From Coprobacillus sp. CAG:605 (GTDB taxonomy: Bacteria > Bacillota_I > Bacilli_A > RF39 > UBA660): 64,000 nucleotides of DNA. The notes under the pieces are model-generated. The model saw only the letters and a program-made list of their open reading frames with translations, was not told the DNA's origin and did not search any database. Position 1 is the first letter of the stretch. Each line of letters begins with the position of its first letter. Shown one piece after another: positions 49 to 5,981 of this stretch. Made by a program: the position numbers and the translations under genes. The DNA lies in contig HF998225.1 of NCBI GenBank assembly GCA_000433255.1, positions 19,063 to 83,062 on the forward strand. The letters are read 5' to 3'.

Positions 49-1029
49 TTAACCTTTTTTATTTTTTGATTTTTTCTTCTTAACTACTGGTTCGCTCTTC
101 ATTTTTGGCAACTCAGTATCATCGCTCAACTTAACCTCATAGATATCATCATTTATCGTCGTATCATTATTTAACTTATCTAAAATCTTATTCATATTTA
201 AATCTTTTCTTACATAAGTTTCTTCTTCCTCTTTAGCACCCTTATATAAGCTATCTAAAGCATTCTTCTTTAATACTGTTATCTCATCACTAACATCAGT
301 TTTAATTGGTAAATAATTATTATCTTTACCATTATTTTTATTTTCTAACCTATCCTTAATCTTCTTCTTTAATTCTTCCTGTTCTTTCTTATCTAAGACT
401 AATTCTTTCTTAGCATTAATTGTTTTATTAACTTTCTTCTTAGTCTTATCTAAATTAAATATCTTTAAAACATCATATATTACAATACCTAATGAAGGAA
501 TTAATATTAAGAACAACCAACCACCAGATTTAAGTATTAAAAATTGAATTCTTCCTAACTGTGGTATCTTAAACGCAACCTTACCTAGTACTTTATCAGC
601 ATCAACATAGGCATCATCTGGTACTGGGTTATTATCTCCCTTAGTTCTAAATTTAAGACCACTATCAGTCTCAATAACCTGTTTAATTCTATGTGTAATA
701 GTTTCACCACTAGTTAAAGAACTTGAAGAAACAAAAGTAATAACATCGCCCTCCTTTAACTTTGAAGGATCATCTACTTTAACATCAAATACTACATCAT
801 ATACTTTAATTGTTGGTTCCATCGAACCAGAAATAATAGTATACAATGCAAAAGCTGGTTTATATTTTTCCCCCTTATTAGCATACAACTGCGCCGCTAT
901 TACATAGTACACTAAAAATAAAGCAATAATAGCTAAAATTGCAAAAATACTCCAAGAAATAACATTGGATATAATATGAAATACTACATTTTTAGAATTA
1001 ATTTCTTTTTTCACACTATTATGCCCCAA
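49..1029 (-). CDS. sipW: SipW-type (ER/archaeal-type, S26B) signal peptidase I with a long charged C-terminal tail
   Basis: An N-terminal TM is followed by the SGSMEPT Ser box, THRI (His in place of the Lys of P-type SPases) and a KGDNNPVPD box. A second TM and an approx 135-aa Lys/Glu/Asp-rich tail follow. The track start is TTG; GTG at codon 6 is an alternative start. Confidence 0.8.
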   Translation of the reverse strand: MGHNSVKKEINSKNVVFHIISNVISWSIFAILAIIALFLVYYVIAAQLYANKGEKYKPAFALYTIISGSMEPTIKVYDVVFDVKVDDPSKLKEGDVITFVSSSSLTSGETITHRIKQVIETDSGLKFRTKGDNNPVPDDAYVDADKVLGKVAFKIPQLGRIQFLILKSGGWLFLILIPSLGIVIYDVLKIFNLDKTKKKVNKTINAKKELVLDKKEQEELKKKIKDRLENKNNGKDNNYLPIKTDVSDEITVLKKNALDSLYKGAKEEEETYVRKDLNMNKILDKLNNDTTINDDIYEVKLSDDTELPKMKSEPVVKKKKSKNKKG

Positions 1030-1206: not shown

Positions 1207-1235
1207 ATTAAAAAAGAACACTTTTTCAAGCATTC
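1207..1235 (-). terminator. Putative rho-independent terminator after the TSP3-repeat gene
   Basis: The minus-strand RNA GAAUGCUU-GAAA-AAGUGUUC forms 8 bp (2 G.U) and is followed by UUUUUUAAUAUUU. It starts at the stop codon. Confidence 0.5.
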
Positions 1236-2644
1236 TAATTTGTTTCTAACTTAACATTAGCACTAAAATTCTTATTTTGGTCAACATCTTGATTATTACC
1301 ACTTTCAATAAAACGATAATTAATAACATATGTATACGTACTATTAGCCTCAATTACTTCATTGGCAATAATACTCTCATCTTGATAAGGAAGATTTCTA
1401 CCACTTAATATAACCTTACCATTTCTTGTTATTTCAAACTCTAAGTTATTAGCTTCACTAAATGTATTTACAACATTTATCCAATACAAGCTATATCGAA
1501 CACTAACTGGGTTATTATTATTAACTTGAAAACTTTGAGTTCCACTCCAACCAGGTACTATATTCGAAGTATTTAAAGTCTTAACATCCTGTAATGAAAT
1601 GTAATAAGTATTTTTATCATTATCTAAATTAGCATCACAATTCAAATCACACTTACCATCACCATCTAAATCAACATTTTTATCAGCAACTCCATCGCCA
1701 TCAGTATCTATGTTCTTATCTGGTTTACCATCACCATTAGTATCACAGTTTAAATCACATTTACCATCACCATTAGTATCTTGATTAGTCAAATCCTTAT
1801 CTGGTTTACCATCTCCATTAGTATCACAATTAAAATCACAAATACCATCATCATCAACATCAATATTCAAATCTGGAATTCCATCTTTATTAGTATCAAT
1901 ATTAGTATTAGGTTTACCATCTCCATCAGTATCACAATTTAAATTACACTTACCATCATTATCTGTATCAATATTTAAGTCTGGCTTTCTATCTCCATCA
2001 GTATCAATATTCGTATTTGCTTTACCATCTCCATCAGTATCACAATTCAAGTTACAAACATCACTACCCTTATCATAACAATTTAAATCACAAATATTAT
2101 CACCATCAAGATCAATATTCTTATCCGGAATTCTATCTTTATCTGTATCAATATTAATATCTGGTTTTCCATCACCATCAACATCAATATTTAAATCCGT
2201 TTTACCATCTCCATCTAAATCAATATTATAATCAGGTCTACCATCTTTATTAGAATCACAATTCAAATCACACTTACCATCTCCATTAGTATCTTGATTA
2301 ACTAAGTTAAAATCAGGCTTACCATCTCCATTAGTATCAAGATTAAATGTAGGAATCTTATCATTAAAATAATCAATATTTAAGTAAGGTTTATTACTCC
2401 CCCACTTAGAACAGTTAATTTCACAAACTCCATCACCATTCAAATCAATATTCAAATCAGCTTTGCCATCCCCATCAGTATCTATATTAGTCATCAAATT
2501 AATTTGATAAACATTATATCCCACACAACTACTAAGTAATAACATAAGTAAAATAAGAATAAGAATTAAATACTTCTTCTTTTTACTTTCTTTTTCTTCA
2601 TCATAACTATTATTTTGATTATTATTTAAAACCTCTTTATTCAT
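1235..2644 (-). CDS. Membrane/lipid-anchored protein with more than 20 thrombospondin-type-3-like Ca-binding repeats and a C-terminal TasA-like beta-sandwich module
   Basis: The N-terminus has a KKKK-hydrophobic stretch ending in LSSC, a lipobox-like motif. About 23 D-x-D-G-D-G-K-x-D-x-N-[IC]-D repeats are interleaved with CDLNC Cys pairs. The last approx 130 aa align by eye with ORF 2940-3452 (NVVNTF block). Its start overlaps the upstream ORF by 8 nt. Confidence 0.75.
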   Translation of the reverse strand: MNKEVLNNNQNNSYDEEKESKKKKYLILILILLMLLLSSCVGYNVYQINLMTNIDTDGDGKADLNIDLNGDGVCEINCSKWGSNKPYLNIDYFNDKIPTFNLDTNGDGKPDFNLVNQDTNGDGKCDLNCDSNKDGRPDYNIDLDGDGKTDLNIDVDGDGKPDINIDTDKDRIPDKNIDLDGDNICDLNCYDKGSDVCNLNCDTDGDGKANTNIDTDGDRKPDLNIDTDNDGKCNLNCDTDGDGKPNTNIDTNKDGIPDLNIDVDDDGICDFNCDTNGDGKPDKDLTNQDTNGDGKCDLNCDTNGDGKPDKNIDTDGDGVADKNVDLDGDGKCDLNCDANLDNDKNTYYISLQDVKTLNTSNIVPGWSGTQSFQVNNNNPVSVRYSLYWINVVNTFSEANNLEFEITRNGKVILSGRNLPYQDESIIANEVIEANSTYTYVINYRFIESGNNQDVDQNKNFSANVKLETN

Positions 2645-2885
2645 TTATATCCACCTCATTAACTTTAACATTAACTATATCTTTTACATTATTTTCTTGA
2701 GCCCTTAATTTATTATAATTTTTTAATGTAACATAAGTTGTAATAGTCGAAAAAATCAAAGCCAAAAAGAACAAAGAAATAATTAAATTTAATTTTAAGT
2801 CGTATTCTTTTTCATCTTTTTTTACTAACTTGCCTATTTGTTCATCAAACTTTTTCTTTATTTCTAACGACTCCAATTCATTCAT
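2637..2885 (-). CDS. Small bitopic membrane protein (82 aa), unknown function
   Basis: An AAGGAG RBS lies 8 nt before the ATG. There is a single central TM (LIISLFFLALIFSTITTYV). The ORF is translationally coupled to the TSP3-repeat gene. Confidence 0.6.
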   Translation of the reverse strand: MNELESLEIKKKFDEQIGKLVKKDEKEYDLKLNLIISLFFLALIFSTITTYVTLKNYNKLRAQENNVKDIVNVKVNEVDINE

Positions 2886-2939: not shown

Positions 2940-3452
2940 TTATTCCAACGTTCTTACTACTAGAGTTGCATCAAAATTACTCATATTATCAATTAATTCA
3001 TTATAATCATTTACATAAATGGTTAGAACATAAGTAACCTCCATATGAGGTGCAATTGTAAAAGTATCTACCGAGTATCCTGATGCGCTTGGTAACATAT
3101 AGGAAGTGCTTATAGCCTCATCATTTCTTGTTAAATTATACATCAACGTAGCCTGATTATTAAAAGTATTAACTACATTTTCCATTGATATATCATATTT
3201 CATCTCTAAGTTAGAATCATTACTTATTTTAACAGTCTTTACAAAAGTATCTCCCGCCGTTATATTAGCTATCTTTATATCCTTACCACCACTATAAGAT
3301 ACATTTAAATTAGCCGATATAATATTTGTCGTACTATTAACACCATCATTAACAATATCATTTGTAAAAAAAGAATAACTAATTCCAACTAATGTCATTG
3401 TTAAAGTAAGTATTATTGTCCCAACTATAATTACCATTTTATTCTTTTCCAT
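2940..3452 (-). CDS. TasA/camelysin-like secreted protein, minor paralogue, with SipW-cognate-type signal peptide
   Basis: The start was moved to MEKNKMVII, which has a GGAAGG RBS. The signal peptide ends in GISYSFFTNDI, matching the A-[YF]-F-[ST] motif class of TasA/CalY. The mature domain is homologous by eye to the C-terminus of ORF 1235-2644. Confidence 0.65.
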   Translation of the reverse strand: MEKNKMVIIVGTIILTLTMTLVGISYSFFTNDIVNDGVNSTTNIISANLNVSYSGGKDIKIANITAGDTFVKTVKISNDSNLEMKYDISMENVVNTFNNQATLMYNLTRNDEAISTSYMLPSASGYSVDTFTIAPHMEVTYVLTIYVNDYNELIDNMSNFDATLVVRTLE

Positions 3453-3577
3453 ATTCAAACCTTCCATCATAATTAATCTTATCATGCTTTGTTCTCTTGT
3501 TCAATTACTTTTAGTATTTTTTGGGCTTCATAGCCCACATCATATATAACACTATCTCAGTAATATCAAATTTTCAT

Positions 3578-3611
3578 CAAAAGAAAAAGCCTAACATTAT
3601 ATCGTTAGACT
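3578..3611 (-). terminator. Rho-independent terminator after TasA-like paralogue A
   Basis: The minus RNA AGUCUAAC-GAUAUAAU-GUUAGGCU forms 8 bp and is followed by UUUUUCUUUUG. Confidence 0.75.
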
Positions 3612-3629
3612 CCAAGTTAATTTTAATAA

Positions 3630-4214
3630 CTATTTTAATGCTGTACCAGCAGCACCAACAATTATAGTTCCACCAAATGATTTACCTTGTAAACTATTTT
3701 GTGCTTTATTAGTTTCTGCAAAATCAACTGTTAATTTATAATAGTTAGTTCCATTAGCTTTTACTGTTAAAGCAGCGGCTTCAGGAATAGCTGTAGTTGA
3801 AGCAGCATTAGCAGCTGGTAATTGCGCAGCAGTAACTAATTTAGTAGTACAAGTAGCATCTTCAGCACCAGTACAAGAATATAGTGTGTAAGTAATATCT
3901 TTTGCATCAGCAGCATCAGCAATAGTGTTAGTTACGCCTTTGTTCCAAACAAGATTAAATTTAGTATCATTTTTTGAACTATTAGCAACAGTAAAACGCA
4001 TAGCAGCACTTTTACCTGGTACCCAGTTTGCAACACTAATTGATGATGTTTGAGCATAAGTAACTGCTAAAGTATCAGTAGAAACTGTAACATTATTAGC
4101 AGATTGGTTACCACTAACAGTTGCCGTAAAGTATGCAAATGTTGTTCCTACAACAGCAGTTAATAAAGTTGCAACAGCGATCACACTTAAAAAGATAACA
4201 TTCTTCTTTTCCAT
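3630..4214 (-). CDS. TasA/camelysin-like secreted protein, major paralogue A (Ala/Thr-rich)
   Basis: The start is set at MEKKNVIFLS, 8 nt after a GGAGGA RBS. The track's extra 13 codons are the 5' UTR. The signal peptide ends in GTTFAYFTATV. The mature part is a beta-rich Ala/Thr/Asn domain with two Cys (YSCTGAEDATC). Confidence 0.7.
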   Translation of the reverse strand: MEKKNVIFLSVIAVATLLTAVVGTTFAYFTATVSGNQSANNVTVSTDTLAVTYAQTSSISVANWVPGKSAAMRFTVANSSKNDTKFNLVWNKGVTNTIADAADAKDITYTLYSCTGAEDATCTTKLVTAAQLPAANAASTTAIPEAAALTVKANGTNYYKLTVDFAETNKAQNSLQGKSFGGTIIVGAAGTALK

Positions 4215-4273
4215 AATTCTTTCATATCCTCCTCTATGATTACATATTATCAAATTATGAATTTAAATTCAAG
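4108..4273. repeat. Copy 1 of a 166-bp duplicated block (promoter, 5' UTR and signal-peptide codons)
   Basis: This copy is about 95% identical by eye to 4853-5018. Identity collapses at the signal-peptide/mature-protein junction. Confidence 0.9.
4244..4272 (-). promoter_or_regulatory. Sigma-A-type promoter of paralogue A
   Basis: The minus strand reads TTGAAT-17 nt-TAATAT, followed by an approx 30-nt leader carrying GGAGGA. Confidence 0.6.
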
Positions 4274-4356: not shown

Positions 4357-4959
4357 TTAGTTTAAATGTCCTGATTGAACAGCAGCACTTACAACAACAG
4401 TTCCACCAAAAGTTTGTCCTTGAAGGGCATCTTGAGCAGCAGTTTTGTTATCAGTAAATACAACTTGAACTTTATAATATGCAGTAGCACCAGCAGCTAA
4501 TGTTAAAGTTTCAGCAGTTGTAATATCACCATCAGCATTTGGTAAAACACTTGATGCATGAACTACAATATTGCAAGTAGTATAAGTTTCATCACAAGCA
4601 GAAATAGTATATTGAATATCAGTATCAACTCCACCTTTGCCATTAGTAGCTAAAGATTCAGCAGTCCAAGATTTGTTAACATCTTGCCAAGCTAATTTGT
4701 AATCAACAGCAGATTGTCCACTATTTTTTACATTAAATGTCATAGCAGGAATTGCTTGACCAGGAACTAAATTAGCAATACTTACTTTATCACCTTGGGT
4801 ATAAACGACACTCATGTCAGCAGTAGTAACATTAACATTTTTAGAAGTTTCGTTACCAGTAACAGTTGCAGTAAAATATGCAAATGTTGTTCCTACAACA
4901 GCAGTTAATAAAGTCGCAACAGCGATTACACTTAAAAAGATAACATTTTTCTTTTCCAT
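4357..4959 (-). CDS. TasA/camelysin-like secreted protein, major paralogue B
   Basis: It has the same MEKKNVIFLSVIAVATLLTAVVGTTFAYFTATV signal peptide as paralogue A. The mature part is about 40% identical to A by eye and has two Cys (SACDETYTTC). Confidence 0.7.
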   Translation of the reverse strand: MEKKNVIFLSVIAVATLLTAVVGTTFAYFTATVTGNETSKNVNVTTADMSVVYTQGDKVSIANLVPGQAIPAMTFNVKNSGQSAVDYKLAWQDVNKSWTAESLATNGKGGVDTDIQYTISACDETYTTCNIVVHASSVLPNADGDITTAETLTLAAGATAYYKVQVVFTDNKTAAQDALQGQTFGGTVVVSAAVQSGHLN

Positions 4960-5018
4960 AATTCTTTCATATCCTCCTCTATGATTACATATTATCAAAT
5001 TATAAAATTCATTTCAAG
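4853..5018. repeat. Copy 2 of the 166-bp duplicated block
   Basis: See 4108-4273. Confidence 0.9.
4989..5017 (-). promoter_or_regulatory. Sigma-A-type promoter of paralogue B
   Basis: The minus strand reads TTGAAA-17 nt-TAATAT, in the position homologous to the paralogue A promoter. Confidence 0.6.
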
Positions 5019-5144: not shown

Positions 5145-5981
5145 ATGATATATCCAATAAGATATATAAAAATAACACAATATCCACACAAGAATAACGA
5201 TTTATCAATTGATTTTGGTAAAGAAAAGAATGTTTCTAATACCCCAATTCTTGCTTGTGATGATGGCATAGTAAAAAAAATTGAATATCAAAAAACAGGT
5301 GGCAATGTAATATTTATCGACTTCAATTCTGGTTATCGTGCTTGTTATGGTCATTTAAAAAACTACATAGTTAAACAAAACCAAAAGGTTAAAAAAGGTC
5401 AAATAATTGGTTATATGGGTCAAACCGGAATTACTACTGGACCTCATCTTCACTTTGGCTTATATGACATAACACCAAACATAAATTATGGTCCAGCTAA
5501 ATATGACCCATTAAAAATATTAACAGTTGCACAAGACCAAATAGTAGATAAAGAAACTAAAGAAAAATATTATTTAAAATATGAAGATACTAATAATATA
5601 AAAAAAGAACTATATGTTTATAATGTTGATGAAGAAGGCCTCGTTGTAAGAAACAAACCAAATGGTTTTAAAACTGGAGAATTACTCCAAGTTGGCACCA
5701 AAGTATTAGAGTTAGAACGTTCAAATAACTGGACTAAAATAAATCAAAACAAATGGGTTTATAATAAATTTCTTACACCCAATAAACCAGAATTTTACAT
5801 TGTAACAACACCAAATAATAAAACCCTAAATGTTAGAAATAAGCCTAGCCTTAACTCCCAAATCATTAAAACAATAAAAAATAACACTCACGTCTCTATT
5901 TATAAAAAAATTAATTCCTGGGTTTGTATAAGCCCTACTAAAAATCATTGGATAGCTAAAAATTTCATCAAAAAAGCTTAA
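5145..5981 (+). CDS. M23 metallopeptidase with two C-terminal SH3b-like domains and no signal peptide
   Basis: A GGAGGTG RBS precedes the start. The HxxxD (HKNND) and HxH (GPHLHF) M23 motifs are present. Two approx 60-aa repeats of the form V-RN-KP...W-K/C-I resemble SH3b domains. No hydrophobic N-terminus is present. Confidence 0.75.
   Translation: MIYPIRYIKITQYPHKNNDLSIDFGKEKNVSNTPILACDDGIVKKIEYQKTGGNVIFIDFNSGYRACYGHLKNYIVKQNQKVKKGQIIGYMGQTGITTGPHLHFGLYDITPNINYGPAKYDPLKILTVAQDQIVDKETKEKYYLKYEDTNNIKKELYVYNVDEEGLVVRNKPNGFKTGELLQVGTKVLELERSNNWTKINQNKWVYNKFLTPNKPEFYIVTTPNNKTLNVRNKPSLNSQIIKTIKNNTHVSIYKKINSWVCISPTKNHWIAKNFIKKA

Follow-up and report, generated by a model that had tools for sequence, protein, structure and literature searches.

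How does a bacterium that builds TasA-type fibres end those fibres and hold them at its surface? To our knowledge, the start, the stop and the cell attachment of such fibres are understood only for TapA of Bacillus subtilis, and even there only in part, and most organisms that carry SipW/TasA operons have no TapA. The question was raised by a locus of Coprobacillus sp. CAG:605 (assembly GCA_000433255.1), in a window of 64,000 nucleotides (nt) taken from contig HF998225.1 (positions 19,063 to 83,062 of the forward strand), where the gene for a long repeat protein, hereafter REP, lies beside genes for TasA-like subunits and a SipW-type signal peptidase. REP is an uncharacterised surface protein from an uncultured Firmicute of the human gut. 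Its coding sequence (1235..2644) specifies 469 amino acids (aa) plus a stop; it was taken from the open reading frame list, and the exact protein is called on 14 public contigs. Positions are those of the window, and features lie on the minus strand unless stated otherwise. We propose, with a probability of about one half, that REP is a membrane-anchored stalk of calcium loops that presents an acceptor-only TasA-like domain, and that this domain caps donor-strand fibres and tethers them to the cell.

TasA fibres grow by strand exchange: the sheet of subunit n+1 is completed by the N-terminal strand of subunit n, no subunit extends its strand before it has itself been complemented, and TapA has been proposed as the supplier of the first strand (PMC9674648). 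In the mechanism proposed here, REP would be a type II (N-in, C-out) single-pass membrane protein with an extracellular stalk of about 20 consecutive Dx[DN]xDG calcium loops, one per 12 residues, in which D9 would serve as an extra ligand; in about every third loop, a Cys8-Cys12 pair would stand in for a Pro8/Ile12 contact and act as a staple. A fibre built of the three co-encoded, SipW-processed TasA-like subunits would have a free donor strand where it grows. The REP end domain would capture this strand and thereby both end fibre growth and tether the fibre to the membrane. Because the end domain is acceptor-only, REP could accept a strand and could not pass one on. The stalk would reach through the wall, and its length would decide how far from the membrane the fibre junction lies. 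An earlier sequence-only reading of this DNA had already given the repeat array a stalk or spacer role, with which the architecture of REP is consistent. What the analysis establishes is the anatomy of the repeats, the relation of the end domain to the neighbouring subunits, its missing donor strand, and the conservation of the operon and of the tail with its transmembrane helix; calcium binding, disulfides, membrane retention and capping through donor-strand exchange are inferred.

The TasA-like end domain and its operon

That reading had also placed a TasA-like module at the C-terminal end of the protein, and profile comparison bore this out, in the form of a beta-sandwich acceptor core without its donor strand (aa 345-469, 1238..1612). 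In BLASTP searches, REP residues 340-469 matched the neighbouring 181-aa protein at E 3e-9 and a 207-aa Peptidase_M73 protein at 4e-5. A profile built from 24 end domains of the family was aligned by hhalign to the three TasA-like proteins of the window with a probability of 99.1% (E 4.6e-19), over residues 61-201 of 207. This range leaves out the neighbours' signal peptide, which ends in GTTFA directly before YFTA, as well as the donor region of about 20 aa that follows it; because the alignment begins beyond that donor region, the end domain of REP is without a donor strand. Where the strand would be, REP has its last repeat units and a linker that AlphaFold modelled with little confidence, the predicted local distance difference test score (pLDDT) falling below 50 over residues 341-349. 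The expected position of a TasA-type donor strand corresponds to aa 337-344 (DANLDNDK; 1613..1636), a degenerate final unit plus linker, and the domain that follows was modelled by AlphaFold as an eight-strand sandwich. The Pfam family Peptidase_M73 was found on the end domains below threshold, with matches in 4 of the 24 relatives (best E 1.6e-4). A profile of the TasA-like neighbours gave no match in the PDB.

The end-domain profile retrieved 2715 representative clusters (50% identity, E<=1e-3) among 1.84 billion. The domain occurred in standalone subunits of 150-230 aa with SipW signals, at the N-terminus of secreted proteins of 350-1700 aa, and at the C-terminus of proteins that combine a transmembrane helix with repeats. 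In P0123, P0152, P0165 and others of the second kind, the REP-type domain stands at the N-terminus, after a SipW-type signal; such proteins may be the tip or adhesin subunits of similar fibres.

The operon was conserved well beyond the species. Fifteen further, divergent loci were found in metagenome-assembled genomes (MAGs) of uncultured gut Bacilli or "Tenericutes" from human, mouse, rabbit and roe deer; three of them carry a Muribaculaceae label and are taken to be mis-binned. The gene order TasA-like gene(s), REP, SipW was kept at every locus with a detectable neighbour on either side (13/13 of the 15). SipW was the next gene downstream of REP in 12 of these loci, and the remaining three end at REP or have no detectable operon neighbour.

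The repeat array

Residues 55-337 of REP consisted of in-phase units of 12 residues, 23-24 in number, starting at residues 55, 67, 79, 91, 103, 118, 130, 142, 154, 166, 178, 190, 202, 214, 226, 238, 250, 262, 274, 289, 301, 313, 325 and 337, with the phase interrupted only by two 3-aa insertions (VNQ and TNQ). The unit consensus in REP was D-T-[DN]-G-D-G-K-[P/C]-D-L-N-[I/C], of the general form D-x-[DN]-x-D-G-K-[P/C]-D-x-N-[I/C]. Seventeen units carried the strict D-x-[DN]-x-D-G motif, whereas 20,000 shuffles of residues 51-345 gave 0.93 such motifs on average and never more than 7, and 8 C-x3-C pairs were present (shuffle mean 0.8, maximum 6). In 3 near-motifs Gly6 is the sole deviation; the remaining three or four units are degenerate, three of them among the 23 units of the array proper (aa 55-336, 1637..2482). 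An almost uninterrupted array of about 23 calcium-loop-type units with interleaved cysteine pairs had been read from the sequence, and these counts upheld it. The description of the region as polyanionic was equally accurate, with 78 D+E against 28 K+R; the net charge of the stalk was -50, which 17-20 Ca2+ ions would roughly balance.

All 8 cysteine pairs occupied unit positions 8 and 12, in place of Pro8 and Ile12. A pair had been expected in every second or third unit, and this held for the C-terminal half of the array, where cysteine-bearing units were spaced by 3, 3, 2 and 3; spacing in the N-terminal half was less regular (4, 5, 1). Among 1318 units from 120 homologues, D9 was conserved in 94% and N11 in 90%, the residues replaced by cysteine were Pro8 (56%) and Ile12 (51%), and Cys8 and Cys12 co-occurred in 332 of 332 units. 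From this perfect coupling it follows that positions 8 and 12 are in contact. The pattern fits an intra-unit disulfide staple, with a paired metal ligand as an alternative. The cysteine-bearing version of the repeat was restricted to proteins with the REP architecture. A cysteine-free 12-aa version, DTDGDGKPDINI, formed long arrays in unrelated surface proteins (P0091, P0080 and others). In the MucBP adhesin P0091 this array adjoins a C-terminal transmembrane anchor, a placement that fits a membrane-proximal stalk, and the 12-aa repeat appears to be a widespread stalk module outside Pfam coverage.

The sequence-only reading had described the units as thrombospondin-type-3-like, a label that found no counterpart in Pfam, in a repeat-profile search of the PDB or in Foldseek. 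The Pfam scan that it had proposed as a check gave no TSP_3, TSP3_bac, EF-hand or dockerin match at E<=1 for REP, and no TSP_3 or TSP3_bac match at E<=1 for 55 full-length family members; neither of these two families was among the precomputed Pfam domains of the 120 homologues. Weak FG-GAP ("calcium blade") matches were seen in 5 of the 55 members. When a 36-aa profile of three units was searched against all PDB sequences, the best match, a non-significant one, was to polcalcin EF-hand loops (DTNGDGK, IDTDGDGFIDFN; E 0.06), no thrombospondin or COMP chain was found at E<=10, and a phmmer search of the PDB with full-length REP gave no match. NCBIfam models of the staphylococcal SD region (SdrC/ClfA/ClfB/SdrD) scored 44-56 bits against cutoffs of 999-2500, over the D-rich region only, and were set aside as compositional matches.

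A broader assignment was better founded. In the Dx[DN]xDG class of calcium loops, an extra Asp a few residues downstream suffices to complete the site (PMC3123361). REP has both the linear motif, in its 17 strict units, and the downstream acidic ligand, in its highly conserved D9. Judged by its motif, the REP unit is a member of this general class, and it would be predicted to bind calcium.

The AlphaFold2 model of REP, computed from a 55-sequence alignment, had a mean pLDDT of 87. Over the stalk the value was mostly above 90 (86-97), secondary structure there was limited to isolated bridges at unit positions 10 and 12 (beta-bridges), and a model of the stalk alone reached a pLDDT of 86 and a predicted template modelling score of 0.69. 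The models suggest a defined, rigid arrangement. Foldseek returned 0 matches at E<=10 for the stalk-only model among 350,542 PDB chains; because Foldseek is weak on irregular, loop-only structures, this is an absence of support rather than proof of a new fold. Where the sequence-only reading had put the end domain tens of nm from the membrane, our bounding guesses are that the stalk would measure about 11 nm at a rise of about 0.5 nm per unit, or 23-35 nm if the units were beads of 1-1.5 nm. A literature search found no paper on the repeat motif, on the REP architecture or on RF39 together with TasA, and no family covering the repeat or the architecture was found in Pfam or NCBIfam.

At the DNA level, Tandem Repeats Finder reported a period of 36/108 nt across 1628-2286 with 63-70% matches, and a separate repeat search found 18 copies across 1637-2491 at 60-85% identity; the imperfect periodic repeat that had been noted at about 1620-2480 was thus recovered as a 36/108-nt imperfect period over about 1628-2491. 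The further suggestion that the repeat number might vary between strains was not borne out by the copies compared. The REP copies on the 14 contigs, which come from several samples, were identical, and the copy in a species-level MAG ("uncultured Firmicutes bacterium") was 98% identical, differing by 11 substitutions but by no indel. Copy number varied about 9-fold between species: the lengths of orthologues spanned 426-1310 aa, their strict motifs numbered 7-65 and their CxxxC pairs 5-57. Easy slippage is disfavoured, because the DNA copies are too diverged from one another.

Membrane anchoring and competing explanations

The N-terminus had been read as a lipoprotein signal or a membrane anchor, and of these two the anchor was retained. 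REP begins with a predicted cytoplasmic tail (aa 1-24, MNKEVLNNNQNNSYDEEKESKKKK; 2573..2644) followed by a single putative transmembrane helix (aa 25-43, YLILILILLMLLLSSCVGY; 2516..2572), and the KKKK and hydrophobic stretch that had been pointed out are present. AlphaFold modelled tail and transmembrane segment as one continuous helix over residues 9-50. Across the family, the tails were acidic and then basic, 25-95 aa long and followed by one transmembrane helix; the hydrophobic stretch was found in nearly all members, and tail motifs (e.g. DYQEQYDILVEEEQEKQKKK) were conserved within subfamilies.

The lipoprotein part of the claim fared less well. If REP were a lipoprotein, LspA would cleave before Cys40 and leave the protein lipid-anchored. 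The sequence LLL-S-S-C does fit the lipobox [LVI][ASTVI][GAS]C, and LSSC was kept in the 98%-identical MAG copy. Cys40, however, follows an n-region of 24 partly acidic aa, REP failed the G+LPP pattern (a PS51257-type lipoprotein rule), none of the 120 homologues matched it, and other family members had no cysteine at the equivalent position. We consider a lipid anchor highly improbable.

Cleavage by SipW was the other way in which the membrane helix could be lost. REP would then carry a TapA-like extended signal, be cleaved near the junction of CVG and YNVY (about residue 42) and be released, and its new N-terminus (YNVYQINLMTNI) would be a donor strand; strand and acceptor core would lie at opposite ends of the calcium rod, and REP would be a fibre-integrated long-linker subunit or a cross-linker. 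The position of SipW directly downstream of REP in most of the MAG loci is in keeping with this, as are the small residues at -3 and -1 (C40 and G42). A long signal has a precedent in the TapA signal peptide, which is about 43 aa in length. TapA is cleaved by SipW (PMC9674648). In a large REP subfamily, moreover, the transmembrane segment ends in GATYSYY[RK]VY, like the G-x-S-Y-A-Y-F-T-A of true SipW substrates. We scored such ends with a position-specific scoring matrix built from 58 genuine SipW-type signal ends: true substrates had a median of 35, REP-type proteins a median of -6, shuffled controls -12 and REP itself -14.5, and only the GATYSYY subfamily, at 7-15, rose above the 99th percentile of shuffles (2.8). 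TIGR04088, the model of the SipW-type signal, matched 0 of the 55 family members. The segment that follows the transmembrane helix in REP, NVYQINLMTNI, showed no similarity to the SipW-signal/donor consensus that would mark a TapA-like mature N-terminus, conserved cytoplasmic tails of 25-95 aa would be unexpected in a discarded signal peptide, and the modelled helix runs on through residue 50. We regard cleavage and release of REP as unlikely. A retained signal-anchor is the better reading of the sequence, and REP would on that reading stay in the membrane.

Two further explanations concern the end domain and the repeats. REP could be a stalked adhesin or binding protein, with a self-sufficient sandwich that binds a host, glycan or matrix ligand and an operon linkage that reflects co-regulation only. 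The top Foldseek matches of the end domain were indeed CBM35, CBM6, GOLD and PPC domains, and the 12-aa stalk bears unrelated adhesin domains (MucBP, cadherin-like) in other proteins. These structural matches were weak (TM score to the target 0.4-0.6) compared with the strong profile homology to the co-encoded subunits; the nearest relatives of the end domain are standalone subunits with SipW signals, and synteny is tight. An adhesin role appears somewhat more unlikely still than release by SipW. True homology of the repeats to TSP_3 would be suggested by the common DxDxDGxxD core, the contiguous arrangement without regular secondary structure and the interspersed cysteines. D1, D/N3, D5, G6 and D9 of the TSP3 motif, DxDxDGxxDxxD, are present in REP units; position 12 is I or C, not D, the unit has 12 aa as opposed to 13/23, the cysteine spacing is different, and the Pfam, PDB and Foldseek searches described above gave no thrombospondin-type match. 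We give this homology very little credence.

Several results weigh against the proposal that REP caps and tethers fibres. The end-domain profile matched TasA itself (5OF1) only weakly, at E 0.3, Foldseek placed the end domain with generic jelly-roll, CBM and GOLD folds (E about 2e-4), and TasA was not among the top 50 of these matches. A 9-fold range of stalk lengths among orthologues would be odd for a simple ruler of wall thickness. Disulfides on the outside of an obligate anaerobe are uncertain, and the cysteine pairs could bind metal instead. In the GATYSYY subfamily, the end of the transmembrane segment resembles SipW-type signal ends, so cleavage may occur.

The weak TasA alignment nonetheless bears on how a strand could be accepted. 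It paired REP 353-381 with TasA NSASVNLSNLKPGD and set REP 350-363 opposite TasA 48-61; this numbering of TasA residues agrees with F29, I32 and F39 in PMC9674648. TasA complements itself with a strand of residues 48-61, which is displaced when a donor strand comes in (PMC9674648). The REP 350-363 segment had low pLDDT and no strand in the AlphaFold model.

A more far-reaching version of the proposal, which we offer as tentative and somewhat doubtful, is that REP represents an undescribed class of membrane-anchored, acceptor-only terminator and anchor. Its polarity would be opposite to that of TapA, it would stand on a previously unseen rod fold of 12-residue calcium loops with Cys8-Cys12 staples, its length would be tuned about 9-fold between species, and the 82-aa protein encoded next to it might provide a placeholder strand.

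Neighbouring genes and known systems

The signal peptidase gene downstream of REP (49..1029) encodes an archaeal/ER-type signal peptidase I of the SipW type (NF046067 SipW, 3.8e-29; TIGR02228, 100.6 bits against a cutoff of 51.85). B. subtilis SipW has about 190 aa; the protein encoded here has 326, including a long K/E-rich C-terminal tail that extends about 120 aa beyond the last hydrophobic segment. Orthologues in related loci measured 249-365 aa, counted from the first in-frame ATG/GTG/TTG, so that starts may be overextended.

On the other side, an 82-aa single-pass membrane protein (2637..2885) overlaps the REP start by 8 nt and is translationally coupled to it. Its tail of about 28 aa on the outside ends in an amphipathic, beta-like segment (DIVNVKVNEVDI); the homologue at L007 5723-6004 ends in NVVEIELK, and the protein is kept only in close relatives. 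A speculative role for it would be to fill a TasA-like groove with a donor or placeholder strand that is tethered to the membrane. Upstream lies the gene for a secreted TasA-like minor subunit of 181 aa (2940..3485). Among the paralogues it is the one closest to the REP end domain, and it has the SipW-type signal end GISYSFFTND and a weak Peptidase_M73 match (E 0.013).

Two genes for TasA/camelysin-like major subunits precede it. Subunit 2 (3630..4214) has 194 aa from its likely ATG, a Peptidase_M73 score of 34.3 bits (cutoff 22.5) and a weak TIGR04088 match, and subunit 1 (4357..4959) has 200 aa from its likely ATG, with 28.2 bits for Peptidase_M73 and E 0.0075 for TIGR04088. At their 5' ends the two genes are near-identical over about 170 nt (4800-5000 and 4055-4255), a stretch made up of the 13 codons from an upstream TTG to the likely ATG and about 44 codons after the ATG, and similarity drops beyond it. 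This points to a recent event, either tandem duplication or gene conversion, in the part that encodes the signal and the donor strand. A terminator-like hairpin, recognised by consensus match only, lies at 3586..3613, directly after the second major-subunit gene and before the genes for the 181-aa protein, the 82-aa protein and REP. Attenuation at this hairpin may cause major subunits to outnumber minor ones, which would fit a low abundance of REP.

Beyond the operon, the window carries genes for an M23 peptidase with SH3 domains (5145-5981, plus strand), a 534-aa protein with several transmembrane segments and a weak DUF4352 match (6211-7815, minus strand) and a LysM protein (7883-8335, minus strand). 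From the nearby LysM and M23/SH3 genes it follows that the organism has peptidoglycan. The window is chromosomal, with an RNA polymerase alpha-subunit gene nearby.

Like the stalks of the Sdr/Clf MSCRAMMs, with their SD repeats and calcium-binding B repeats, the REP array is an acidic, repetitive spacer of variable length between an anchor and a functional domain. The REP anchor, however, is an N-terminal transmembrane helix and not an LPXTG/sortase signal, the repeat chemistry is different, and scores against the SD-region models fall well short of their cutoffs (55 versus 1700 bits). With the EF-hand, dockerin and FG-GAP loops, REP shares the linear motif, Gly6 and the nearby extra Asp (PMC3123361). 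Unlike them, it has no flanking helices or propeller blades, and its loops follow one another head to tail at least 20 times, an arrangement not described there. Thrombospondin type 3 repeats (1UX6, 3FBY) resemble the stalk in their contiguous DxDxDG-type loops, presumably organised by Ca2+, in their lack of regular secondary structure and in their interleaved cysteines. They differ in that the REP period is a strict 12 aa and the REP cysteine pair stands within a unit (i, i+4), whereas cysteines of the type 3 repeats link motifs. The stalk packs one predicted calcium site into every 12 residues, is modelled with confidence by AlphaFold and had no counterpart among the PDB chains searched; it could serve as a calcium-dependent rigid spacer or as a material for protein engineering.

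An analogy, and no more than that, for the end of the fibre is given by PapH and FimH of the chaperone-usher pili: a subunit that lacks one half of the donor-strand exchange pair defines a fibre end. Folds and secretion machinery are unrelated to those of the REP system, and the hosts of such pili are Gram-negative.

The closest comparison is with TasA, TapA and SipW of B. subtilis. As in that system (PMC9674648), the REP operon combines TasA/camelysin-like subunits that bear SipW-type signals with a SipW-type peptidase and an accessory protein; in both, this accessory protein has a portion of the subunit fold and may be what anchors the fibre to the cell. TapA, cleaved by SipW, gives a donor strand through the N-terminal residues of the mature protein; REP has the reverse polarity, in that it offers an acceptor core and no strand. 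REP would also, unlike TapA, keep its transmembrane helix and conserved cytoplasmic tail, it adds a calcium-loop stalk of about 280 aa, and it has no sequence similarity to TapA. If the proposed capping and tethering is correct, an anchored, acceptor-only protein would provide a concrete and testable answer to the question of fibre attachment in a large group of uncultured gut Bacilli. The REP operon is a TasA/SipW fibre operon in which the place of the accessory protein is filled by a novel stalked, acceptor-only one.

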